Assembly: GCA_038851075.1 (NCBI GenBank)
Contig: JAWCLG010000002.1
Coordinates: forward strand, 1 to 64,000
Source: Candidatus Hadarchaeales archaeon
GTDB taxonomy: Archaea; Hadarchaeota; Hadarchaeia; Hadarchaeales; Hadarchaeaceae
Direction: 5' to 3'
Length of the DNA stretch: 64,000 bases
The notes under the pieces were generated by a model. The model ran no database searches. It was not told where the DNA came from and saw nothing but the letters and a program-made list of their open reading frames with translations. Shown here one piece after another: positions 2,901 to 22,487 of the stretch (position 1 is its first letter; each line of letters opens with the position of its first letter). A program made the translations under genes and the position numbers.

Positions 2901-3152
2901 ATGACAGAGGCCCAGTTAAAACAGGTGGTGGGGATAATGACGAGAATATCGGAGGACACATCGGTACCGCGGAACATAAGGAGGGTTGCCAGTGATGCCA
3001 GAGAGATTCTGCTCAACGGGAAAGAAGATCTAGGGGTGAGAGCCGCTTCTGCAAGGATAGCGATAGAGGAGATAAGCAACGACCCGAACATGCCGGTACA
3101 GGCCAGGACTCTGATATGGAACGCACTCAGCATTCTTGAGACCATAAGGTAG
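2901..3152 (+). CDS. UPF0147 family protein
   Basis: DTSVPRNIRR and EEISNDPNMP..ARTLIWN motifs. Confidence 0.9.
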   Translation: MTEAQLKQVVGIMTRISEDTSVPRNIRRVASDAREILLNGKEDLGVRAASARIAIEEISNDPNMPVQARTLIWNALSILETIR

Positions 3153-3237
3153 ATTGATCATGTCCCCACCGATCAGGAGATAAATGTCAGGAGGGAAGGT
3201 GGTTTAGCTGGAACCAGATGTCGCCGAATTCTTCGAT

Positions 3238-3534
3238 ATGATCAGGAGGAGAGACCTAAAAAAGGCGAGGGAGTGGCTGGACGGCTTCAGGGCCTCGATA
3301 CAACAGTGGGATGATTTTAAGAAAGGCTATGCGCTCGCGCTGAACGGTTTGGTGGCCGCGCTCAACGGTGGGGGGGAGGACTCCCTAGTGAAAATGGTGC
3401 TGGAAGGCAAGAGCGACATAAACAAGATCGTGCGGGATATCAACGAGAGATTATCGCTCGGATTCAGGCCAAAAGACGAACAGGGATTTGACAGGGCCTG
3501 GCTCGATTTTCTCGAAAACCTGAGAAAAAAGTAA
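3238..3534 (+). CDS. Hypothetical protein (start may be CTG at 3208)
   Basis: Fills the intergenic gap; helical protein-like composition; SD-like GGTGG before CTG 3208. Confidence 0.65.
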   Translation: MIRRRDLKKAREWLDGFRASIQQWDDFKKGYALALNGLVAALNGGGEDSLVKMVLEGKSDINKIVRDINERLSLGFRPKDEQGFDRAWLDFLENLRKK

Positions 3535-4119
3535 CTATATCGTGGCGTGTCGGGCCCTGAGTTCGTCCTCCTTTCTGCCAAGCTTCACCATGAGGCTGGC
3601 GATCACGCTGTCCAGGAACACCAGAGACGATATCTCGAACAGCGTCCCGAGAGGTGTCAGAGATGCGTACTCCCCTGCGAGTTCTCTTCTCATGTACGTC
3701 GGGGTTCTCGCCACCTTCTTCCTCCCCGGGATTATCACCGTAAGGTCGGAAAGCCTGGAAAGGCTCGAGTTTGGATAGGATGTTATTCCGACTATCTTGG
3801 CCCCGACCTTCTTCGCAACCTTGGCTGCCTGTACGACGAGGTCGGTTTCGCCTGATCCAGAAACGGCGACGAGCACATCGCCAACTCTTATTGCTGGAGT
3901 AATGGTCTCGCCAACGACGTATACATCGAGATCGAGATGCATGAGGCGCATGGCAAACGCCTTGACCACAAGTCCGGAGCGTCCCGCCCCAACGGCAAAA
4001 ACGCGTCTGGCGCTCAGCAGCACCTTTATGAAACTCTCAACCTGACTCCTGCTCAGCTTCCTGGCTGTGGATGTGAGGTGCTGCGTTATCTCGTCCATGG
4101 CCCTGCGTGTTTCTCGCAT
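3535..4119 (-). CDS. hxlB: 6-phospho-3-hexuloisomerase (SIS domain)
   Basis: GAGRSGLVVKAFAMRLMHL, VVGETITP, SGSGET, PLGTLFE. Confidence 0.92.
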   Translation of the reverse strand: MRETRRAMDEITQHLTSTARKLSRSQVESFIKVLLSARRVFAVGAGRSGLVVKAFAMRLMHLDLDVYVVGETITPAIRVGDVLVAVSGSGETDLVVQAAKVAKKVGAKIVGITSYPNSSLSRLSDLTVIIPGRKKVARTPTYMRRELAGEYASLTPLGTLFEISSLVFLDSVIASLMVKLGRKEDELRARHATI

Positions 4120-4233
4120 GCCCTCACACTCAAGACTTCACACGGTAACTTTAAAGTTTACTGTTACTCCCGCCAGGGCTGGAACCTGGAAACATTTTAT
4201 ACTTTTCACCGTCAGTAGCACTGAGGAGGACAG

Positions 4234-6189
4234 ATGCTGCATTTCCTTGGATTTATAATTATCACCATCGGAGCTGCGATGATCGCTCCGGCCATCATTG
4301 CGCCTATCGTCGGAGAGACGCACCTGATCCCGGTTTTTTTGGGACCCGCGGCAGCCGCGATCTTGATAGGAGTTTATCTCAGAAAGAGATACGGGCCGTC
4401 CGAACTTTCCCTCGGAAACGCCATGGTCGCAGTAACCGCCGCATGGCTCATATGCTCCGCCTTCAGCTCCGTACCCTACATGCTCGGGGCTGGGATGCCG
4501 GTCGAGGACGCCTACTTCGAAAGCGTTTCCGGATTCACGGCAACGGGCCTTACAATGATCTCCTGCGATCCTGTTGCGAACCACATCGTTATAAGCGAGG
4601 TAGGGTTCCTCCCTGACCCCGAAAACGGATACATAGAGCTGTACAACCCGACCGGCTCCAAGGTAAACATATCGGGGCTCAAAGTTTGGACCGTTGACAG
4701 CTCCGGAGCTCTGACCGAACTAAACATGAGCTGGAACAGTGACTCAATTCAGCCCTATGGTTATTTTCTGATAAGCAGCGGGAGGGATAACGCTTCTGAC
4801 GCTGTGTTCAGCGGTGAACTCACATCCAAGATTGGGATTGTTATCGGATGGGGGTCTCCGGAGAACGCTGCCGACAGAATAATCTGGGGGGCTGAAACTG
4901 CGGGGGTCGGTGCAGGCGACGCCCTAAACGTGGTGCCATCTCCCGGTGACAGTTTCGAGAGAAAGGCGCTTGGAGCCTCAAACTCCAGCAGTATGAGGGA
5001 TAGGGACAATCTGAAGGGAAACGGATTCTGCACCGGAGCGAACTCCGACTTTGTATACCACTTTGGGTATCAAAATCCGCAGGGATCCAGAAGCGCGCCC
5101 GAAGCTCCGGTTATAAACATCGCGATGACCCCGAAATCCATACTTTTCTGGAGGAGCTTCACACAGTGGATCGGAGGTCTCGGCGTTGTGGTTCTGTTCC
5201 TTGCGGCGGTGATAGGTTTCGGTAAAGCTGCCAGAAAGTTCTACGTGGCTGAGGCAAGGGCGGAACTGCTGGAGCCGAGCATAAAGGACACCGTGAGATC
5301 TCTCTGGAAGATATATATCATACTCACGGTCATCGGGGCTGTGGGCCTTTACGTAACATCGCTTCCGAGAGCATCCATCTTCGAGGCTGTGAACCATGCC
5401 ATGACCGGGATCGCGACTGGCGGATTCTCTGTAAGAAATGATTCATTCGCATCATACGGTATCTCAGCTTGGGCGGTTATGATACTCGTGATGATGGCTG
5501 GTGCTATAAGCTTCGCTGTGCACAGGAAGTGGATGTCAAGGAGATTCGGGGAGGTTCTGAAAAACATTGAAGTAAGGCTTATGATATGCATAATAATCTT
5601 CGCAACCATAATGCTTTCAATAAGCGTCAGCGTCGGGGATGCAATCTTCCAGTCAACGTCAGCGCTGACCGGTACTGGTTTTTCCACAACGAACATAGCC
5701 GGATGGAACGACGCCTCAAAGTCACTGCTGACCCTCCTGATGATAGTAGGAGGTGGGTATGGATCCACATCCAGTGCTCTGAAGCTCATCAGGGTGATCA
5801 TAATTGGAAAGTCCGTGTACTGGCTGCTCAGGAGAAGTTTCCTGCCAGAAAGGGCGGTGTACCCTATGAAAATCTCTGGAAAGGAGTACAGCGAGAAGGA
5901 AATGATGGAAACGACTCTCTACGCCCTGGTATATATAATCGTGCTTATAGTCGGCGCGGTTGTCCTTATCTCCCTCGGGTACGGGCTCGTTGACTCGCTG
6001 TTCGAATCCGCCTCCGCCCAGGGCAACGTGGGGCTATCCACAGGAATAACCTCCCAGCTGATGCCGCTTGCCGGAAAGGTAACCCTGACTGTCCAGATGA
6101 TCATGGGAAGGCTTGAGATAATACCTGTGATAGCATTCATGGGATATCTGCTTTCTAAGGTACCTCGCCCTGGTCCGAAGCCCGTCTAG
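4234..6189 (+). CDS. trkH: TrkH-family K+ uptake membrane protein with inserted lamin-tail-like domain
   Basis: Four pore motifs (FTATGLT, ATGGFS, TGTGFS, GNVGLS), FWRSFTQWIGGLG, MGRLEIIP; soluble insert at aa ~111-296. Confidence 0.92.
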   Translation: MLHFLGFIIITIGAAMIAPAIIAPIVGETHLIPVFLGPAAAAILIGVYLRKRYGPSELSLGNAMVAVTAAWLICSAFSSVPYMLGAGMPVEDAYFESVSGFTATGLTMISCDPVANHIVISEVGFLPDPENGYIELYNPTGSKVNISGLKVWTVDSSGALTELNMSWNSDSIQPYGYFLISSGRDNASDAVFSGELTSKIGIVIGWGSPENAADRIIWGAETAGVGAGDALNVVPSPGDSFERKALGASNSSSMRDRDNLKGNGFCTGANSDFVYHFGYQNPQGSRSAPEAPVINIAMTPKSILFWRSFTQWIGGLGVVVLFLAAVIGFGKAARKFYVAEARAELLEPSIKDTVRSLWKIYIILTVIGAVGLYVTSLPRASIFEAVNHAMTGIATGGFSVRNDSFASYGISAWAVMILVMMAGAISFAVHRKWMSRRFGEVLKNIEVRLMICIIIFATIMLSISVSVGDAIFQSTSALTGTGFSTTNIAGWNDASKSLLTLLMIVGGGYGSTSSALKLIRVIIIGKSVYWLLRRSFLPERAVYPMKISGKEYSEKEMMETTLYALVYIIVLIVGAVVLISLGYGLVDSLFESASAQGNVGLSTGITSQLMPLAGKVTLTVQMIMGRLEIIPVIAFMGYLLSKVPRPGPKPV

Positions 6190-6769
6190 CCGGAGGCCTT
6201 ACGAATATCCTGTATTTATCGTCCCCGCGTATCTCGCTCTCTATTCTCCGGGCCACGAGCGACTTTGGATTTATCAGTCCCTTTATCCTGTTCTCCAGGT
6301 CATTAAAATCTGAGAATGGCTTCTTATTTCTCTCCTCGATTATCGCCCACATCAGTTTCTTTCCTATGCCCGGAATCAGCTCAAGCTGGTGAAATCTGGT
6401 AGTCAGTGGGGCGGCGCGGTTGAAGAACTCCACGAACCTCTCCGGGCGCTCGTTTATCAGCTCCTCTATCGCGGATGGAAGCTCAGCCTTTGCGGCGGCC
6501 GTGAGCTCATCGTATCCGATCCTGCGCTTTATCCTGTCGACCTTGTCCCTTTCTCCCTTTCCTATGAAGACCATCTCATGTGGGGAGAAGGTCACTCCCT
6601 CCCGAGGAACTACCTCCAGAAGCGTGAAGAACGCGTCACCTAGTATCTGCGCCACTGGCTCCCTGAGGTGAACAGGCCTGGGGTCTCCTGGGTTGCCCTG
6701 GGGGAGGAAATCTAGCACTATTCCCCTGTCCTCATATTTTTTATCCAGAAATATCGCCTCCGTGCTCAA
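6155..6769 (-). CDS. DUF655 family nucleic-acid-binding protein
   Basis: LDFLPQG, FTLLE, HQLELIPGIGKK (HhH); conserved position after rpoF. Confidence 0.92.
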   Translation of the reverse strand: MSTEAIFLDKKYEDRGIVLDFLPQGNPGDPRPVHLREPVAQILGDAFFTLLEVVPREGVTFSPHEMVFIGKGERDKVDRIKRRIGYDELTAAAKAELPSAIEELINERPERFVEFFNRAAPLTTRFHQLELIPGIGKKLMWAIIEERNKKPFSDFNDLENRIKGLINPKSLVARRIESEIRGDDKYRIFVRPPARRASDQGEVP

Positions 6770-6775
6770 CGGATT

Positions 6776-7111
6776 TTATTTCCTGTAACCGTCAAGAATT
6801 TCCAGCACCTTTTTCGCGTCCTCTTCACCGAGCTTTGCCCTCTCCTTTGAAAAGATGAGATCGATTTCCTCCTTACTCTCAGGCATGAAATCCATGAGCA
6901 TGACGGCCTGATGCTCCTTCAGCCCCATCTCCAGCAGCTTCGCCATGAGATCATCCGCCTTTTTCTGGTCAAGCTTCGCGAACTTTTGAGCGTAGTCATA
7001 CGTGAGTCTCTGAGAGTAATCCAAGTCCCCCTCCTTCTTTTTCTTTTCCAGGATTTCCTTAACCTTCGAAAGGGTAACGTGTCTCTCTCCAACAACCCTC
7101 TTTCCGATCAT
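6776..7111 (-). CDS. rpo4: RNA polymerase subunit Rpo4 (F)
   Basis: MIGKRVVGE..VTLSKVKEIL, YSQRLTYDYAQKF; synteny rpl21e-rpoF-DUF655. Confidence 0.93.
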   Translation of the reverse strand: MIGKRVVGERHVTLSKVKEILEKKKKEGDLDYSQRLTYDYAQKFAKLDQKKADDLMAKLLEMGLKEHQAVMLMDFMPESKEEIDLIFSKERAKLGEEDAKKVLEILDGYRK

Positions 7112-7404
7112 GCTGACACCATCCTCAAATGCTCAGGTCTGGATATAATTATTTTCTCCTTTTCCCCGTCCCTCAGACTTACCAGATACGCCCTCCCTCT
7201 CCTCCCGGTGACCACAGCGGTCCTTCCGTGATAACGGTGGTGGGGCTGCCCCTTTATAACTGCCGGGTTTATCATTATCGTCACCCTTGCGCCAACAGGG
7301 AACTCCCTTACCGACCTGCTCGGAGGATGGAGTCCCCTCTCGCGGGGGTACTTTGTTAGCTTCCTCCGGCTCTTGCTTCTGAGCCCCTTTGACCTCCTAG
7401 CCAT
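7108..7404 (-). CDS. rpl21e: 50S ribosomal protein L21e
   Basis: RSKGLRSKSRRKL, KGQPHHRYHGRT, RPEHL. Confidence 0.96.
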   Translation of the reverse strand: MARRSKGLRSKSRRKLTKYPRERGLHPPSRSVREFPVGARVTIMINPAVIKGQPHHRYHGRTAVVTGRRGRAYLVSLRDGEKEKIIISRPEHLRMVSA

Positions 7405-7441
7405 TCCACTCACCTACACAAAAGTTAAACCGGCTGTACAT

Positions 7442-8824
7442 TTAAGACGTTTTCCTGCCCCCGGAAACGCGGTGCCCTGCCCCGCCACCCTTCATGAGCT
7501 TTCCAAGCTGTCCGAGCTTCAATCCCCTCCCCCTGCCAAACGCCTTCACCATCCTCTTCACCAGCTCGTACTGCTTCAGCAGTTCCCTGACATCAGCCTC
7601 TGTCGATCCCGATCCTCTGGCTATTCTTCTTATCCTGGACGAATTTATTATCTTTGGATCGTCCAGCTCCTCTGGCGTCATTGACTGCATTATGACCTTG
7701 AAGCGCTTCAGCTTCTCCTCGCCAACCCTCATCTGCTCATCAGGGATGGAGGCGCCAACTCCAGGAAGCATCTGCACGACCTTTTTGAGAGGGCCCATCT
7801 TGCTCATCGCCTCGAGCTGATTGTATACGTCCCTGAGGGTGAGCCTGCCGCTCATTATAGCCCTGGCGTCCGCATCCTTCATCTCCGTTTCCTCCATGAC
7901 GTCCTTGATCTTCTTCAGCAGCGTCTCCAGGTCGCCCATTCCCAGCAGCCTGGCAACGAAGCGCTCCGGGACGAAGGGTTCTATGTCGTCCAGGTGCTCC
8001 CCGACCCCTATGAACTCTATTGGAGAACCGGTGGCAGCCACAGCGGACAGCGCACCTCCCCCCTTGGCGGTGCCGTCCAGCTTGGTGACCATTATGCCTC
8101 CGATCTCGGTGGCATTCTTGAAAGCGATCGCCTGCTCCTTCGCCTGCTGCCCTATGGTTCCATCCACCACCAGAATCACCTTGTCCGGACTGACGGCTTT
8201 CGCTATCTGCTCCATTTCAACCATTAGCTCCTCCTCCCTTCTGTGCCTCCCTGCTGTGTCAACTAGGATCAGCTCCATTTTTTCATCCCTCATGCGCCTG
8301 ACACCGTCCGAGGCGAGTTTCACCGGGTCCTTCGCCTCTGGATCGCCGAAAACCTCGACCCCGGTCTGACCGCAGAGCTGGATCATCTGTTCGTAAGCGC
8401 CAGGTCTGAACGTATCGGCGCATATCACCCCAACCCTGAATCCCTTCTTCCGGAAATATTTCGCCAGCTTTGCAACCGAGGTGGTCTTACCGGAGCCCTG
8501 CAGCCCAACCATGAGCACGACCTTCGTCCTGCCGGGTTCTGGCGAGAAGGAGGACGGCTGGCCCAGAAACCTGGACAGCTCCTCGTAGACTATCTTTATC
8601 ACGTGCTCCTTCCTGCTCATGCCCGGAAGCAGCTTTTCCTCAAGCGCCCTCTTCTCTATGTTTTTTCCGAGGGAGAAGACCAGCTCGACGTTGACGTCGG
8701 CCTGAAGGAGCGCCCTCTGAAGCTCCCTGACGAGCTCCTTTATCTCCTGCTCACCAACATGGGATGACCTGGCTATCCTGCCTATGGCCCCCTGCAGGGC
8801 CTTTCCAAGCCTCTCAAGCACCAT
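7442..8824 (-). CDS. srp54: Signal recognition particle protein SRP54
   Basis: GLQGSGKTT, DTFRPGA, DTAGRH, TKLDGTAKGGGALS, Met-rich M domain. Confidence 0.97.
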   Translation of the reverse strand: MVLERLGKALQGAIGRIARSSHVGEQEIKELVRELQRALLQADVNVELVFSLGKNIEKRALEEKLLPGMSRKEHVIKIVYEELSRFLGQPSSFSPEPGRTKVVLMVGLQGSGKTTSVAKLAKYFRKKGFRVGVICADTFRPGAYEQMIQLCGQTGVEVFGDPEAKDPVKLASDGVRRMRDEKMELILVDTAGRHRREEELMVEMEQIAKAVSPDKVILVVDGTIGQQAKEQAIAFKNATEIGGIMVTKLDGTAKGGGALSAVAATGSPIEFIGVGEHLDDIEPFVPERFVARLLGMGDLETLLKKIKDVMEETEMKDADARAIMSGRLTLRDVYNQLEAMSKMGPLKKVVQMLPGVGASIPDEQMRVGEEKLKRFKVIMQSMTPEELDDPKIINSSRIRRIARGSGSTEADVRELLKQYELVKRMVKAFGRGRGLKLGQLGKLMKGGGAGHRVSGGRKTS

Positions 8825-8891: not shown

Positions 8892-9911
8892 ATGAAGGCG
8901 CTGGTGCTTGCAGGGGGATTCGCGAGAAGACTGGGGCCGATAGGGGAGAACCTGCCGAAGGCCATGCTGGTGGAGGAAGACTCGTCAATTCTGGACCTGA
9001 TACTCAAAAAACTGCATGAAGCCGGCATAGAGGCGTACATAAGCACGAACCGGAAGTTCGCGGATTACTTCAACGGATACAAGAACCTGATAATAGAGGA
9101 AACCACGAAGGAGGAGGAGAAACTCGGGGCGGTATCTGCCATAAACCACGCCATAAAGACCGCCGGAATAAACGAGGACCTTCTGGTGATATGCGTTGAC
9201 AATTACTTCTCTGACGATCTGAAGGATCTGATAGCCGGGTATTCAGGGAACCCAGCGGTGGGAGTTTACTATATCGGTGGAAGATCAGACATGAAAGCCG
9301 AGGAGCTGGGCTCCGTGAAGTTCGATGGCAGCGACAGCTACCCCCCAGCCCGCCGTATTTTCGCGATAACTGACTTCAAGGAGAAGCAAAAGCCTCCTCT
9401 CAGCTCTTACGTGGCGGCCGGCGTGTACGTTTTTCCAAAAAGGCTGTTTCCGGTAATAGATGAGTTCTGCAGGGGACAGAAGCGCGATGCTCCCGGAACT
9501 CTTGTCCAGCACCTGATAGAGCGCGGCGAAAAAGTGATGGGGTACCTGCTCAGCGGAACATGGTACGATGTCTCGCACAAGAGCTACCTAACCGCATTTT
9601 CGGACGCAAGGCTGGTGAAGTGCGATGAGAGATACATAGTCTGCGATAAGGCGCTAAGCGAACATTTCGTCGCATCAATAACCATACTGAAGCCCGGAAA
9701 GCACACAACTGGACACTCACACCCGGTGGCCGAAGCCTACTTCTTCGTCGGTGGGGTCGGCGAAATAGAGACCGACGAAGGAAGGAGAAAAACTGTCGGA
9801 CCCAAGGATGTCGTGCTGATAAAACCAAACGAGTTCCACAGGGTCTACAACACCGGAAGATCCCTGCTCATATTCGTCTCTGCCTTCGAGAGATACGGTG
9901 AGAGGGGCTGA
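8892..9911 (+). CDS. Sugar-phosphate nucleotidyltransferase fused to a C-terminal cupin
   Basis: LAGGFARRL..PK and FKEK motifs; C-terminal GHSHPVAEAY...PNEFHRVYN cupin motifs. Confidence 0.85.
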   Translation: MKALVLAGGFARRLGPIGENLPKAMLVEEDSSILDLILKKLHEAGIEAYISTNRKFADYFNGYKNLIIEETTKEEEKLGAVSAINHAIKTAGINEDLLVICVDNYFSDDLKDLIAGYSGNPAVGVYYIGGRSDMKAEELGSVKFDGSDSYPPARRIFAITDFKEKQKPPLSSYVAAGVYVFPKRLFPVIDEFCRGQKRDAPGTLVQHLIERGEKVMGYLLSGTWYDVSHKSYLTAFSDARLVKCDERYIVCDKALSEHFVASITILKPGKHTTGHSHPVAEAYFFVGGVGEIETDEGRRKTVGPKDVVLIKPNEFHRVYNTGRSLLIFVSAFERYGERG

Positions 9912-9912
9912 A

Positions 9913-10713
9913 CTATCCATTCAGGTACTCGATCAGAGATTTGAATATTAGTCTTCCATCTCCGTATTCCGGGACCACGTCCTCTGAGGTCCAGTCCGGC
10001 AACTGAACCCCGTAAAAAGCCCTTTCCGGATGAGGCATGAGGCCAAAGACAAGCCCGCTCGGGTCACATATCCCGGCTATGTCATAGAGAGAACCATTGG
10101 GATTCAGAGGATACCTCCCCCTTGCGTATTTTCCGTTCTCGTCACAGTACCTGAACACTATCTGGTCGTTCTTTATCAGCCTCTTCAGATTCTCTTTCTC
10201 CCTGTCGAGCACGAATCTGCCCTCGGCATGCGCGACTGGGATGCGTATCACCTGTCCCCTTCCCACCTTTCTCGTGAAAATGCAACGCTTAATGTTATCG
10301 TGCCTGAGATAAACCCACCTGCACTCATACCTGCCGGAAACGTTCAAAGCGAGGGCGGCCTCCTGACGTCCCGAGCCATCAAATCCCGGCAGCAGCCCTG
10401 ATTCCACAAGCACCTGAAATCCGTTGCATATGCCAAGTATCGGCCTGCCCTCCTCAAGATAACTCCTCAGGTCGCCATACATCGCACTCAGCGTGACCCT
10501 CCCGAGTATGGCGCCAGCCCTTATGTGGTCACCGTATGAGAATCCTCCAGGTATGACGAGGGCATCAAATCTTTTGAGCAGTCTGTCCCGAACCAATCTC
10601 TTCGCGTGGATTATCTCTGATCTGGCTCCGAGCTCATCAAGCGCAACCTTGGTCTCGAAGTCACAGTTTGTCCCCCCCACCCTTATCACGCAAATTCTCG
10701 GAGCGTCTGCCAT
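9913..10713 (-). CDS. purQ: FGAM synthase glutaminase subunit PurQ
   Basis: GTNCD, PGGFSYGD, GICNGFQ, AHAEG, MPHPER. Confidence 0.96.
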   Translation of the reverse strand: MADAPRICVIRVGGTNCDFETKVALDELGARSEIIHAKRLVRDRLLKRFDALVIPGGFSYGDHIRAGAILGRVTLSAMYGDLRSYLEEGRPILGICNGFQVLVESGLLPGFDGSGRQEAALALNVSGRYECRWVYLRHDNIKRCIFTRKVGRGQVIRIPVAHAEGRFVLDREKENLKRLIKNDQIVFRYCDENGKYARGRYPLNPNGSLYDIAGICDPSGLVFGLMPHPERAFYGVQLPDWTSEDVVPEYGDGRLIFKSLIEYLNG

Positions 10714-10722
10714 AAACGCACC

Positions 10723-13083
10723 TCACAGCCTGAGCCCAGACTGCCACGCCTCCCGCATGGCACTTCCGGAAACTCTGATGATGTCTCTTCCGTCTGCCCT
10801 GAAGGTCAGCTCCCCGCTTTCATTGACCTCACCCACCCTCACAAACGGACACTTCATCGTCCTCTCAAACTTTCTCTCCTTCCCCTTTTTGACCTCGACA
10901 ATGAACCTTCCGTTCGACTCCGAGAAAAGCAGATGGTCCTCTCTGAGTTTCTCACCAGCCGGAATATTGTCTAGGTTTATTTCGGCTCCGAGATCGCTGC
11001 TCAGAACCATCTCCGCAACTGCAACTCCAAGTCCTCCATCGGAGATGTCGTGACAGGATCTAACGCAGCTCGAGTCTATGGCTTTCAGGACTGACGAGAT
11101 GGCTGCGCTGGACTCTCTTGCCCTCACGACCGGAACCTCTGATCCGAGCTCTCCAAAAAGGGCATAGTACTCCGATCCCCCGAGTTCCCTGTAGGTTCTG
11201 CCAACGACATAGATGGCATCTCCCTCCCTCTTCAAATCCACCGAAACTGCACTTCTAACATCCGGGATAACTCCAACTGCCGTTATCAGCAGGGTCGGGG
11301 TGATAGGCCCCAACGGTGATTCGTTGTACAGGCTGTCCTTACCTGAGATGAAAGGCGTGCGGAAGGAGAGTGAAAAATCCCTGCACGCCTCACAGGCCCG
11401 CACCAGCGATGCCAGCTGCTCCTCCTTTTCCGGATTACCCCATACGAAGTTATCCAGCAGAGCTATCCTCCTCCCGCCGGCCGCAACGTTGTTTCTTATC
11501 GCCTCCTCTATGCTCGAGGCGGCCATCCAGTACGCATCGATCCGTCCGTACCTTGGCCTCATGCCGCAGGAGATAACCACGCCACGCCTCGATTCCGGAA
11601 GCGGTTTTATCACCGCCGCATCGCTCGGTCCACCGTGTCTCCCGTGAAGCGGCTTTATCACAGTTGCTCCCTGAACCTCGTGATCGTATGTCCTCACCAC
11701 GCTCTCCCTGCTCGTGATGTTCGGCGAAGAAAGGAGCCTGAGAAGAATGCCTTCAAGGTCACCCGGCATTTTCAGTACCGGCTCAGATGTTCTCTTTCCT
11801 GCTGTTTTTATCGTCCTCTCAGGAAGCGGCGGCGAAAAAAGGAACTTTAGATCAAGACTCATTATCTCACGTCCCTGATAGCTGACCCTCGCCCTCCTGC
11901 CCCGCTCGAACCTTCCTATGACCGTGGCTTCGACCTCCTCCTCCGAAAACACGTCGAGAACTTTTTCCACGTTTTTCTCAGGGACCGATAAAAGCATCCT
12001 TTCCTGGGACTCTGAAATCCATATCTCCCACGGCCTCATCCCGCTGTACTTCAGAGGCACTTTATCAAGCTCCACGTATACCCCGCATCCGGACCTGTTC
12101 GCCATCTCGCAGGCTGCGCATGAGAGCCCGCCTCCTCCGAGATCCGTGATCCCGGACGCCAGGCCCATCTCCCCTATCCTGAGGATCGCCCTTCTCAGTT
12201 TTTCCTCCTGTATGGGATCTGGTATCTGGACGGCAGGTCTGTGGATCTCCTCAGACTCCGCAGTGAGTTCGACAGAAGCGAAAGTCACGCCATGAATGCC
12301 GTCCCTTCCGGTCCTTCCTCCAGCGAGCACAACCACGTCTCCGGGGCGCGTTTTTTTCACGTACTCCTTCAGCCTGAGGATCCCAACGCAGCCACAGTAA
12401 ACGACCGGATTTCCCACATAGCTCTCGTCGAAGAATATGCCTCCGGCCACGGTTGGTATCCCCATGTTATTGCCGTATGCGCCTATACCCGCAACCACGC
12501 CGCGAAAGATGTATCTTGGATGCTTAACCCCTGAAGGAAGTTTTCCCCGGTAGTCCAGAGGGCCGAAGCCAAGCACATCTATGTTGGCAACTGGCTTTGC
12601 CCACACACCCAGTATGTCCCTTATCACTCCGCCTACTCCGGTAGCCGCCCCTCCGAATGGCTCTATGGCCGATGGATGGTTGTGTGTCTCAACCTTTACC
12701 GCAATCGCCTGTCCCCTCTCAAAGGCCACTATTCCGGCGTTGTCCTCGAAAACCGATATGCACCACGGCGGAGACATTTTCCTGGTGGGCCTGAAGATAA
12801 AGTCCCTGAAAAGCCTCATCTCCTTTTTACCGGATTTTATACTGCCGCGAAATGTCTTGTGATAGCAGTGCTCCGACCATGTCTGCCCGATGGTCTGCAT
12901 CTCTATATCAGTGGGGTTCCTTCCATCCCTTCTGAAGTAATCCCTGCAGGAGCGCATCTCGTTCAGATTAAGCGCCAGCCCCATCTCCTCACTGATTCTG
13001 AGGAGCTCCCTGTCTTCCGCTTTTAGAAGATCAACCTCAAAAAGCTCGAACGGGTAACCCGCACTCCGGAAGATAAGGCTCAC
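10723..13083 (-). CDS. purL: FGAM synthase subunit PurL
   Basis: WSEHCYHK, ETHNHPSAIEPFGGAATG, SESQERM, SGKDSLYN. Confidence 0.97.
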   Translation of the reverse strand: MSLIFRSAGYPFELFEVDLLKAEDRELLRISEEMGLALNLNEMRSCRDYFRRDGRNPTDIEMQTIGQTWSEHCYHKTFRGSIKSGKKEMRLFRDFIFRPTRKMSPPWCISVFEDNAGIVAFERGQAIAVKVETHNHPSAIEPFGGAATGVGGVIRDILGVWAKPVANIDVLGFGPLDYRGKLPSGVKHPRYIFRGVVAGIGAYGNNMGIPTVAGGIFFDESYVGNPVVYCGCVGILRLKEYVKKTRPGDVVVLAGGRTGRDGIHGVTFASVELTAESEEIHRPAVQIPDPIQEEKLRRAILRIGEMGLASGITDLGGGGLSCAACEMANRSGCGVYVELDKVPLKYSGMRPWEIWISESQERMLLSVPEKNVEKVLDVFSEEEVEATVIGRFERGRRARVSYQGREIMSLDLKFLFSPPLPERTIKTAGKRTSEPVLKMPGDLEGILLRLLSSPNITSRESVVRTYDHEVQGATVIKPLHGRHGGPSDAAVIKPLPESRRGVVISCGMRPRYGRIDAYWMAASSIEEAIRNNVAAGGRRIALLDNFVWGNPEKEEQLASLVRACEACRDFSLSFRTPFISGKDSLYNESPLGPITPTLLITAVGVIPDVRSAVSVDLKREGDAIYVVGRTYRELGGSEYYALFGELGSEVPVVRARESSAAISSVLKAIDSSCVRSCHDISDGGLGVAVAEMVLSSDLGAEINLDNIPAGEKLREDHLLFSESNGRFIVEVKKGKERKFERTMKCPFVRVGEVNESGELTFRADGRDIIRVSGSAMREAWQSGLRL

Positions 13084-21824: not shown

Positions 21825-22487
21825 TTATCCCCTCAGCAGCCTCGAAACTTTAAGGACATCCTTTGGTTTCCCGACGACCGTCACCAGGTCTCCAACCTGT
21901 ATCACAGTTTCTCCCTTGGGCGGGATCAGCTCGTCTCCCCTGGTTATCATGGCAAAAGTGCATCCCCTGACATTGATGTCCTTGAGCGCTTTGCCAACCG
22001 CCTTTGACTTCGGTCCGACTGTTACCTCAACGACCTCTCCCTTCCCACCGCCTATCCCCAGAAGACCGTAAACTCCGGTACCGGTGACCGCCTTTTCGAA
22101 AAGCATTACCGCGGAGGTAGCCAGATTTATTGCAATGTCGACACCCATCTCCTCAAACATCCGGACATGCTCCTCCTCATTGACCCTGGCGATCACCTTG
22201 TGAACTCCACGCTTCTTCGCAAGCTCGCATGCCATAAGATTCACCTCATCGGCGTCAGTGAGGGCAACAAGAATATCTGCCCTGTCGATACCCGCGTCCT
22301 TCAGCACATCCAGCTCCGCACCGCTGCCGTTTATTACGAGGATATCAAGATCAGCAGCCAGCTCGTGTGCCTTCTTCTCATCCTTCTCTATGAGAACCAC
22401 ATTGTGGCCTCTCTCGTTCAGGCGCTCCGCGAGCTTTGAGCCTATCCTGCCACCACCCACAATGACTATATACATCCTATAACCCAT
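21825..22487 (-). CDS. trkA: TrkA-family RCK (NAD-binding) K+ transport regulator
   Basis: IVGGGRIG, AGIDRADILVALT..DEVN, C-terminal RCK_C domain. Confidence 0.92.
   Translation of the reverse strand: MGYRMYIVIVGGGRIGSKLAERLNERGHNVVLIEKDEKKAHELAADLDILVINGSGAELDVLKDAGIDRADILVALTDADEVNLMACELAKKRGVHKVIARVNEEEHVRMFEEMGVDIAINLATSAVMLFEKAVTGTGVYGLLGIGGGKGEVVEVTVGPKSKAVGKALKDINVRGCTFAMITRGDELIPPKGETVIQVGDLVTVVGKPKDVLKVSRLLRG

Follow-up and report, generated by a model that had tools for sequence, protein, structure and literature searches.

A TrkH-type potassium channel subunit with a lamin-tail-type domain nested in the external loop behind its first selectivity filter in a Hadarchaeota archaeon

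The window analysed here is a stretch of 64,000 nucleotides from a Hadarchaeota archaeon with a small genome of ~1 Mb, the DNA of which is present in runs labelled as hot-springs metagenome, no RNA run being listed for it. Its forward strand carries an open reading frame at 4234..6189, comprising 651 codons plus a stop, with no frame break and a product of 651 amino acids. Pfam analysis assigns this protein to the TrkH family (PF02386; E 1.9e-59, 201.9 bits against a gathering cut-off of 27, in three stretches), and the NCBIfam TrkH subfamily model TIGR00933 scores 256.6 bits against a cut-off of 331.15, its match being split in two by the insert described below. The N-terminal membrane part (residues 1-110; 4234..4563, forward strand), as delineated by alignment to Vibrio parahaemolyticus TrkH (VpTrkH), the helices of an AF2 model and invariant columns, holds two leading helices, the D1 M1 helix, the D1 pore helix and the D1 filter T104-G105 (nt 4543-4548). 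The C-terminal membrane part (residues 297-651; 5122..6186, forward strand), delineated by the VpTrkH alignment, invariant columns and Foldseek, comprises D1 M2 and the domains D2-D4, with the filters T395-G396-G397 (nt 5416-5424), T481-G482 (nt 5674-5679) and N598-V599-G600 (nt 6025-6033), all on the same strand. All four filter motifs are invariant in an alignment of 24 sequences (A1), and in a wider alignment of 120 sequences (A2) G397 and G482 are invariant and G105, G396 and G600 are at least 90% conserved. The unbroken frame and four intact filters noted in a first, sequence-only reading of this DNA are thus borne out.

The predicted structure tells the same story. The full-length AF2 model (pLDDT 88.4, pTM 0.89) shows the succession of helices and pore helices expected of the family, and in Foldseek it matches TrkH chains with E values of 4e-17 to 1e-15 and TM scores by target of 0.81-0.84 against 3pjz, 4j9u, 6v4k and 6v4l (0.83 for 3pjz). 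Taken together, profile matches and the predicted model establish the product as a TrkH/KtrB-type K+ channel subunit whose core is otherwise intact.

The interruption of this core is encoded at 4564..5121 (forward strand), which accounts for 186 residues (111-296) and includes every motif that the sequence-only reading had quoted for a lamin-tail domain (LTD). A phmmer search against solved structures aligned query residues 3-109 with VpTrkH residues 8-117 and query residues 294-634 with residues 118-476; since the two aligned blocks abut in the reference, the extra residues separate two positions that correspond to VpTrkH residues 117 and 118. The insert begins six residues past the filter glycine G105 and stops 5-6 residues short of D1-M2, at a site where insert-free relatives have 2-15 residues. 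The outer placement of the TrkH filter-M2 loop is established topology, and the outward-facing position proposed for this loop holds by homology to solved TrkH.

The identity of the insert is indicated by several lines of evidence. With 34.3 bits, the gathering score, as the operational threshold for PF00932, the LTD model falls slightly short of it both for the insert alone (E 1.3e-7, 32.4 bits) and within the whole protein (29.3 bits); the sequence-only reading had named Pfam scans as a check, and these returned TrkH clearly and the LTD just under its cut-off. The relatives of the insert are more explicit. PF00932 appears in the precomputed Pfam column for seven of the 16 other full-length insert-bearing clusters and in all 38 relatives found by word search, and phmmer with the insert retrieved 880 proteins at E<=1e-3 from 1.84 billion representatives. 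All 11 of the phmmer representatives that were scanned match the LTD, 10 of them above the cut-off, and the insert matches protein P0122, which itself scores 159.5 bits on the LTD, with an E value of 8.4e-37. Furthermore, 17 columns are invariant between TrkH inserts and stand-alone LTDs (alignment A3).

Modelled alone, the insert is all-beta with a pLDDT of 91.4. Foldseek places it near lamin A/C and B1 with a probability of 0.99 and TM scores by target of 0.54-0.58 at an E value of about 1e-2, no match reaching E<=0.001, and VIA aligns 101 residues with lamin B1 (7dtg) at Z 6.9. The insert sequence profile gave no match in the PDB at E<=1. The closest match in VIA is 4q1z_A (Z 12.0, rmsd 3.0, 164 residues aligned, spanning model residues 1-178). 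Hence, the external loop that joins the D1 selectivity filter to the D1-M2 helix houses a complete LTD, a lamin-tail, Ig-like beta-sandwich of ~185 amino acids, and the central proposal of the sequence-only reading, an LTD-type Ig-like insert past the first filter of a TrkH, is well supported by the Pfam matches, the 38 PF00932-bearing relatives, the model and the lamin fold matches.

The composition of the insert is less distinctive. Its net charge is -10, within a range of -7 to -23 across all 17 inserts, and stand-alone LTD modules are likewise acidic (-10 to -32), so this acidity is no peculiarity of the channel. All four N-x-S sequons and both cysteines reported earlier are present. Shuffled sequences are expected to hold 2.2 sequons and hold at least four in a fraction of 0.156, which is to say that the sequons of this insert are enriched no more than by chance. 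A disulfide between the two cysteines finds no support, since cysteines are not conserved among the inserts, 13 of the 17 having none. The glycosylation proposed in the sequence-only reading is likewise not supported by the sequon count, although the genome does encode an STT3/AglB gene.

Sixteen further full-length protein clusters, drawn from NCBI, JGI, ENA and Logan assemblies, plus two fragments, carry this insert at an identical site; among the matches listed, 17 of 120 proteins have the full insert, the two fragments coming in addition. At the level of genomes, seven of 66 Hadarchaeota, this genome and six others, carry it inside TrkH; the seven span four genera of one family. Some relatives have this arrangement and others do not. 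The neighbourhood UPF0147-orf-SIS-TrkH-DUF655-Rpb4-L21e-SRP54 is common to all four insert-bearing genomes examined and to seven of the eight insert-free ones; in the eighth insert-free stretch (G045) the sole TrkH match was a distant one. Each insert-bearing genome has a single TrkH, which together with the identical synteny rules out paralogues as the source of the pattern. A search of related loci in species genomes did not turn up any insert-bearing TrkH of full length, every full-length match from Hadarchaeota having the insert-free length, and the ESM Atlas held no large cluster with this architecture, a blank that proves nothing. Searches of the literature on TrkH/KtrB, on Hadarchaeota TrkH and on the lamin tail domain with potassium found no description of a TrkH with an LTD among the papers listed, in line with the earlier statement that none was known.

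How the domain came to be distributed in this way can be read from the trees. Insert presence requires 10 state changes on the core tree, at least eight of them forced by well-supported branches, and a topology that unites the insert-bearing cores in one clade is rejected (lnL difference 614, p-AU 1.1e-7). Insert and core nevertheless diverge together: their distances correlate with a Mantel r of 0.93 (a value reached in 0 of 5000 permutations), the insert evolving 1.8 times faster, the groupings of the insert tree agree with those of the core tree, and the insert is kept across divergences at which the core is just 60-67% identical. Because of this co-divergence we infer loss rather than gain, and horizontal spread of the insert across lineages is not favoured. 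Loop length proved of no use as a guide to loss versus gain, as short loops also occur outside the clade, in 16 sequences that include proteins named at source as Thermococci and Methanomassiliicoccales.

A plausible origin of the domain lies within Hadarchaeota. By tblastn, a 180-aa LTD unit with 28-34% identity occurs in open frames of 1000-2146 amino acids in seven other Hadarchaeota genomes, and an eighth has it in a frame of 444 amino acids; one of these frames combines the LTD with Kelch and Glucodextran_B. Monophyly of the TrkH inserts relative to other LTDs is weakly supported (71/87). These data make a good case that the LTD was captured once, from the LTD modules heading large surface proteins of Hadarchaeota, and that it was thereafter inherited with the gene and repeatedly lost in close relatives, either through deletion or through exchange for an allele that lacks the insert. 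Where the LTD has been kept, sequence comparison shows it to be under purifying selection: between G017 and G026 (Nei-Gojobori), in what is essentially one unsaturated independent comparison, dN/dS is 0.11 for the insert (dS 0.96; 75 synonymous and 46 non-synonymous differences) and 0.09 for the core.

Residues 297-301 (5122..5136, forward strand) lie right behind the insert, and columns 298-301 are those that co-vary most with its presence or absence. In one clade, 4-5 post-junction residues track allele class and not the core tree; simple independent deletions do not explain the junction pattern. Of about 463 core positions, 17 distinguish proteins P0009 and P0036, and five of the 17 lie at the junction. 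When residues 297-302 are left out, two of the five columns that co-vary with the insert lie in outer loops (Fisher p 0.38), and there is thus no enrichment of outer-loop columns beyond the junction itself. Nucleotide identity over nine gene segments gave no sign of recombination near the junction, the nearest relative remaining unchanged. A shared heptamer follows the junction, read in different frames; it may be a deletion scar, on thin evidence.

As for potassium uptake, a single TrkH was found in the genome assembly (88% complete), and no KdpA, Kup or Ion_trans_2 was found in it at that completeness. A TrkA/KtrA-type RCK subunit of 220 amino acids is encoded on the reverse strand at 21825..22487 (TrkA_N 114 bits, TrkA_C 63.6 bits), 15.6 kb from trkH and not adjacent to it; it is likely to be the cytoplasmic partner of the fused channel. 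As the searches turned up just this one TrkH and neither Kdp, Kup nor any other K+ channel, the fused protein should still conduct, and K+ conduction together with TrkA may, on this tentative reasoning, continue.

The explanation that best accounts for these observations, to which we assign a probability of roughly 0.6, is that of a K+ channel in which the LTD was captured one time, was repeatedly lost, and serves as an accessory extracellular module. The short linkers and the known topology of TrkH would place the domain at the pore mouth. Near-identical orthologues work without it, so it would not be an obligatory gate, and its repeated loss in close syntenic orthologues argues that it is accessory and dispensable for conduction. 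Such a module could bind the envelope or an extracellular partner, or, as an acidic body, could shape cation access in the manner of an acidic vestibule. No other LTD protein was found in this genome, which argues against LTD-LTD networks. The accessory function itself is put forward tentatively, and gating by a ligand, tethering to the S-layer and shielding of the pore, as raised in the sequence-only reading, are conjectures.

Other readings of the same data have to be weighed. One, which we regard as doubtful, joins two proposals: that the LTD is a regulatory or receptor module tuning K+ entry, and that its presence and absence form an old, selected and recombining two-allele polymorphism of an essential gene. 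The LTD would then bind an envelope or environmental ligand at the pore mouth, and pressure from, for example, a virus or toxin on the outer face might preserve both alleles in many Hadarchaeota lineages. A related proposal, the main idea of the sequence-only reading, to which we give similarly low odds, is that the LTD lies as a cap or gate over the D1-D4 pore entrance and regulates how K+ enters according to an extracellular ligand or condition. The closeness of the insert to the filter (six residues) and to D1-M2 (5-6 residues), a whole-chain pTM of 0.89 that suggests a fixed orientation of the domain, the co-variation of the residues just past the junction and the purifying selection on the insert would all suit a gate. 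However, near-identical orthologues without the LTD show no other concentrated change (P0009/P0036), the co-varying outer-loop columns are not enriched once the junction residues are set aside, and the channel cannot be closed by default because it is the sole K+ uptake path found.

That the LTD is instead a variable surface feature, a shield or decoy against virus or toxin maintained as a long-lived presence/absence polymorphism and shuffled by recombination, appears improbable. Its scattered occurrence in close relatives that share the genomic context would fit, as would the junction residues of one clade, which track allele class as two old alleles would; but the dN/dS of the insert resembles that of the core and diversifying selection is not seen, the segment-wise nucleotide identities hold no recombination signal near the junction, no form skipping the insert occurs in four runs (low-depth contigs only), and a link to viruses was not found. 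Equally poor are the prospects of a tolerated passenger, functionless on its own in a permissive loop. The many losses without visible compensation and the variable length of the insert-free loop (2-15 residues) are what a passenger would predict, yet the excess of synonymous differences in the G026/G017 insert, the 17 columns invariant over TrkH inserts and stand-alone LTDs, and the retention of the insert where core identity falls to 60-67% speak against it.

Finally, an assembly chimera or frameshifted mis-join has a negligible chance of having made this fusion, even though under a 31-letter rule both junctions are bridged by one contig only (in X1, possibly the source of this DNA): the insert sits at the identical residue position in the 16 other full-length clusters and six other genomes, the frame is open, GC content is even across the junctions, and contigs of two further samples (X2 and X3) cross the junctions free of mismatches, reaching 19 nt into the insert from the left and 6 nt out of it on the right. 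The runs compared are Logan contigs of one study, the X2 and X3 overlaps of 19 and 6 letters lie below that rule, and no joints were seen in Logan contigs at this gene, which X1 alone spans. The doubt raised earlier over a chimera is thereby settled by the independent assemblies.

Work on TrkH/KtrB proteins has treated them as compact pores of the membrane under cytoplasmic control by RCK rings and nucleotides. A domain that folds outside the cell within a few residues of the selectivity filter, as in the accessory module favoured here, would be the first hint of a handle on this family from outside. Nature also supplies the controls, in the form of syntenic orthologues with and without the LTD, down to about 96% core identity, and these pairs make the effect of the LTD on K+ uptake directly testable. 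The prokaryotic LTD, a domain of obscure role, would thus be found in a setting where function is measurable. Furthermore, the locus offers a case in which an entire domain was repeatedly lost, or swapped by allelic exchange, in a housekeeping gene that is otherwise inherited vertically.

TrkH and KtrB belong to the SKT superfamily and are represented among solved structures by Vibrio parahaemolyticus TrkH (3pjz, 4j9u, 6v4j-l) and Bacillus KtrB (4j7c). The present protein resembles them in fold, in its four pore loops with conserved filter glycines, in the presence of an RCK partner gene in the genome and in its single-copy gene, which sits in a conserved neighbourhood of housekeeping genes. 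It differs in the 186-residue folded domain that parts the counterparts of residues 117 and 118; structure and literature searches found no solved or described TrkH/KtrB with a domain at the filter-M2 site. The prokaryotic LTD proteins closest to this case are nucleases that are secreted or associated with membranes (ExeM/NucH, Hvo_1477), together with giant surface proteins. The insert shares with them the domain family (PF00932), the full 180-aa unit, which aligns, and an extracytoplasmic location; but in those proteins, which are soluble or have a single anchor, the LTD is N-terminal or in tandem arrays, whereas here the domain is nested in a polytopic ion channel. PMC6085458 and PMC5118699 give the role of the prokaryotic LTD as unknown and suggest targeting to membranes or membrane-associated structures. 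Structurally, the whole insert is matched best by BT_1938 of Bacteroides thetaiotaomicron (DUF4876, PDB 4q1z; Z 12.0), a protein of the soluble lipoprotein type and not a channel, which has no detectable sequence similarity to the insert.

The K2P cap and the cysteine-rich outer loops of NaV/CaV/NALCN are folded structures that arise from a pore-flanking loop above a K+-channel-type filter, and the K2P cap is helical, is formed by the M1-P1 linker and is obligatory in its family. The LTD insert is homologous to neither the cap nor those loops; it is an all-beta Ig-like sandwich in the filter-M2 linker and is optional among orthologues. Any likeness would therefore be one of mode of action only, that of a folded extracellular structure on a pore-flanking loop above the filter. 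Structures in this position can bear regulatory sites, as indicated for K2P and NaV/CaV/NALCN channels (PMC5575254, PMC4436565).

The TrkH-LTD gene (window 4234-6189, + strand) is a single open frame of 651 codons, the product of which matches TrkH in Pfam (PF02386; E 1.9e-59, 201.9 bits, cut-off 27), with a lamin tail domain (LTD, PF00932) located within residues 115-191. Using phmmer against all solved chains, residues 3-109 were aligned to residues 8-117 of the TrkH of Vibrio parahaemolyticus (4j9u/3pjz), and residues 294-634 to its residues 118-476. Since the matched reference stretches end at 117 and start at 118, the insert (residues 111-296, window 4564-5121) represents a clean insertion between adjacent reference residues, directly past the D1 filter and ahead of D1-M2, the second helix of channel repeat 1. 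The channel core is intact, and an alignment of 24 relatives shows no variation at filter residues T104-G105, T395-G396-G397, T481-G482 and N598-V599-G600. GC content is uniform over both junctions (0.54). The sequence-only reading, which described a TrkH with an LTD-like domain inserted at the first pore loop, was right in all checkable details. The 3' end of trkH overlaps that of a convergent DUF655 gene (6155-6769, - strand) by 35 nt (6155-6189).

By sequence and predicted fold, the insert is a complete LTD. Pfam scans matched both of the families anticipated from the sequence; the LTD of the insert scanned alone (186 aa) was found at E 1.3e-7 and 32.4 bits, slightly below the gathering score of 34.3. 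A phmmer search of 1.84 billion representatives returned 880 proteins at E<=1e-3, mostly aligned over insert residues 4-182; an LTD was matched in all 11 of these relatives scanned, with 10 exceeding the cut-off, and PF00932 is carried by all 38 hits of a second, word-based search. Furthermore, the LTD motifs cited in the sequence-only reading (V-I-S-E, E-x-Y-N-P, E-R, G-N and N-x-D-F) are among the 17 columns invariant between the insert and 12 translated relatives from the phylum (five TrkH inserts and seven modules of other proteins). AlphaFold2 models the insert alone as a beta sandwich (pLDDT 91.4, pTM 0.90), while the model of the whole protein (pLDDT 88.4, pTM 0.89) matches TrkH structures in Foldseek (E 4e-17 to 1e-15, TM 0.81-0.84 by target). 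The insert model matches the Ig domains of lamins A/C and B1 with a Foldseek probability of 0.99 at an E of just ~1e-2, and a Foldseek-independent search returned 4q1z_A (DUF4876) at Z 12.0 over 164 aligned residues and lamin B1 at Z 6.9; the latter is supporting rather than decisive, as a Z below 8 may, according to the tool's note, mean merely a common arrangement. No solved relative of the insert was detectable in a sequence search of the PDB. The same LTD unit is joined to signal peptidase I (PF10502/PF00717) in proteins P0276, P0188 and P0242 of candidate-phyla-radiation bacteria, representing another LTD on an outward-facing membrane protein.

The insert evolves under constraint comparable to that of the core: dN/dS is 0.11 for the insert (dN 0.106, dS 0.96) and 0.09 for the core in the comparison of genome G017 with G026, the one pair well short of saturation. 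For G005 and G017 the values are 0.12 and 0.10 at high dS; G017 and G020 are almost identical, and the remaining pairs are saturated. The nested LTD is folded, conserved and selected.

TrkH with an LTD insert is a real, shared architecture. In a word-indexed search, 8000 candidates were scored, 1381 reached E<=0.001 and 120 were listed; among the matches listed, at least 17 proteins including the query possess the full insert (186-200 residues) at the identical position, and two (P0050, P0073) are fragments showing part of it. These relatives derive from NCBI, JGI, ENA and Logan assemblies, the closest named ones being Hadarchaeota (Hadesarchaea) MAGs. Across 66 Hadarchaeota genomes, TrkH is present in 61 and the insert was matched in 14; the search for the same fusion, suggested earlier, located it inside the TrkH frame in seven (the window's own G000, G005, G017, G020, G026, G043 and the fragmented G015), representing four genera of one family. 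Public runs containing the window's DNA are labelled hot-springs metagenome. One of their contigs, which may be the source of the window, spans the gene, and contigs from two more samples enter the insert from either side, with an overlap below the 31 letters required by the tool; no insert-less form was seen among the public-run contigs compared. At low depth, contigs of these runs differ from the window by G>A at two places within the insert, 4600 in X1 as well as X3 and 5067 in X3.

The gene order at trkH is UPF0147, a small ORF (3238-3534; 98 aa, 40-50% identity in relatives, sub-threshold Pfam match only), SIS, TrkH, DUF655, Rpb4, L21e and SRP54, a conserved block (2901-8824) common to at least four genera. 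It is identical in 4/4 insert-bearing and 7/8 insert-free genomes fetched, the eighth (G045) yielding a distant TrkH match only. Both forms are therefore positional orthologues, and this same neighbourhood rules out paralogy. The assembly (1.01 Mb, 88% complete) holds one TrkH and one LTD, both within this gene, and a protein with TrkA_N and TrkA_C (21825-22487). TrkA_N also occurs in two further frames (481 and 356 aa; G000:C15:12072-12422 and G000:C20:6839-7063). Searches of this assembly for KdpA, Kup and Ion_trans_2 channels found none, and TrkH-LTD would, as far as the assembly goes, be the cell's K+ uptake path. In locus L119 (C1:42000-56500) of G049, a genome from a different family in the order, an insert-free TrkH (ORF 11662-13065) is preceded, 1.3 kb upstream, by a diadenylate cyclase of the DacZ type (PK_C/DacZ_P + DAC; ORF 9457-10329), an arrangement that fits c-di-AMP control of K+ uptake.

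As to its history, single ancient capture of the insert followed by vertical descent and repeated loss is the best reading. Insert and core distances are correlated in the 16 full-length insert-bearing proteins (Mantel r 0.93, 0/5000 permutations as high), the insert changing 1.8x faster, and the insert tree recovers the groups of the core tree. TrkH inserts cluster apart from seven stand-alone LTD modules, with weak support (71/87). The core tree excluded insert columns and comprised 81 rows (120 minus 5 short left 115, of which the first 75 and last 6 were taken). On it, insert-free rows are mixed in among the 16 insert-bearing ones, a distribution that requires 10 state changes, at least 8 of them forced by well-supported branches. 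Constraining the 16 insert-bearing rows to one group costs 614 log-likelihood units (p-AU 1.1e-7); within one shallow clade, chosen after seeing the tree, a single insert-bearing group is also rejected (p-AU 0.018). The likely source is the LTD units heading large proteins of the same phylum: the same 180-aa unit stands at the head of open frames (1000-2146 aa) in seven other Hadarchaeota genomes, one of these frames combining LTD, Kelch and Glucodextran_B, a surface-protein composition. The nearest stand-alone relative of the insert, a 1542-aa LTD + Kelch + Glucodextran_B protein, lies in L119, 4 kb farther upstream of the cyclase, and adjoins a 969-aa Big_13/Glucodextran_B protein.

The junction presents a puzzle. 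P0009 (with insert) and P0036 (without) show just 17 core differences, five of them consecutive at residues 297-301, immediately past the insert. In their clade, the junction sequence is uniform among the insert-free proteins and likewise uniform, but different, among those with the insert; hence, the junction tracks allele class, not the core tree. In other clades the post-junction residues track the core tree, matching the prediction of separate deletions. Three explanations are possible for the P0009/P0036 clade: a single deletion allele spread through recombination or lineage sorting; recurring deletion at the same site; or local compensation following loss of the insert. A segment-wise identity scan gave no recombination signal. 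A heptamer past the junction, TGCCCCC (window 5122-5136 and the same place in loci L107, L108 and L115), is common to insert-bearing G026 and insert-free G018/G021, in different reading frames at an offset of 2, and may be a compensated-frameshift scar of a domain-removing deletion.

In solved TrkH structures, the loop holding the insert faces outside. Six residues separate filter glycine G105 from the insert and ~5 separate the insert from D1-M2; given these short linkers and the high whole-chain pTM, the LTD should lie next to the pore entrance or above it. Its net charge is -10 (-7 to -23 over all 17 inserts), and stand-alone LTD modules are as acidic. We tentatively propose an accessory extracellular module that might bind a partner in the envelope or outside the cell, could perhaps increase local cation concentration, and would be dispensable for conduction, since close orthologues lack it. 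A true ligand-controlled cap over the pore, as in K2P channels, is possible by analogy but less likely. The glycosylation proposed earlier is possible because an STT3/AglB gene is present; sequon counts (4 observed, 2.2 expected) give no indication of it, and the insert's two Cys are not conserved. In two published reports, the role of prokaryotic LTDs is described as unknown, and association with membrane or membrane-linked structures is suggested (PMC6085458, PMC5118699).

Full-text literature searches turned up no account of an LTD, or of any other extracellular domain, at the D1 filter-M2 loop of TrkH or KtrB, and the ESM Atlas showed no large cluster with this architecture, a weak blank. 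Both families appear in the precomputed Pfam labels of 7 of the 16 other full-length insert-bearing clusters, and databases may therefore list the architecture, which seems so far to have been discussed by nobody. Both the channel and the domain of TrkH-LTD are known; their nested arrangement is new, and its pattern of gain and loss is unusual.
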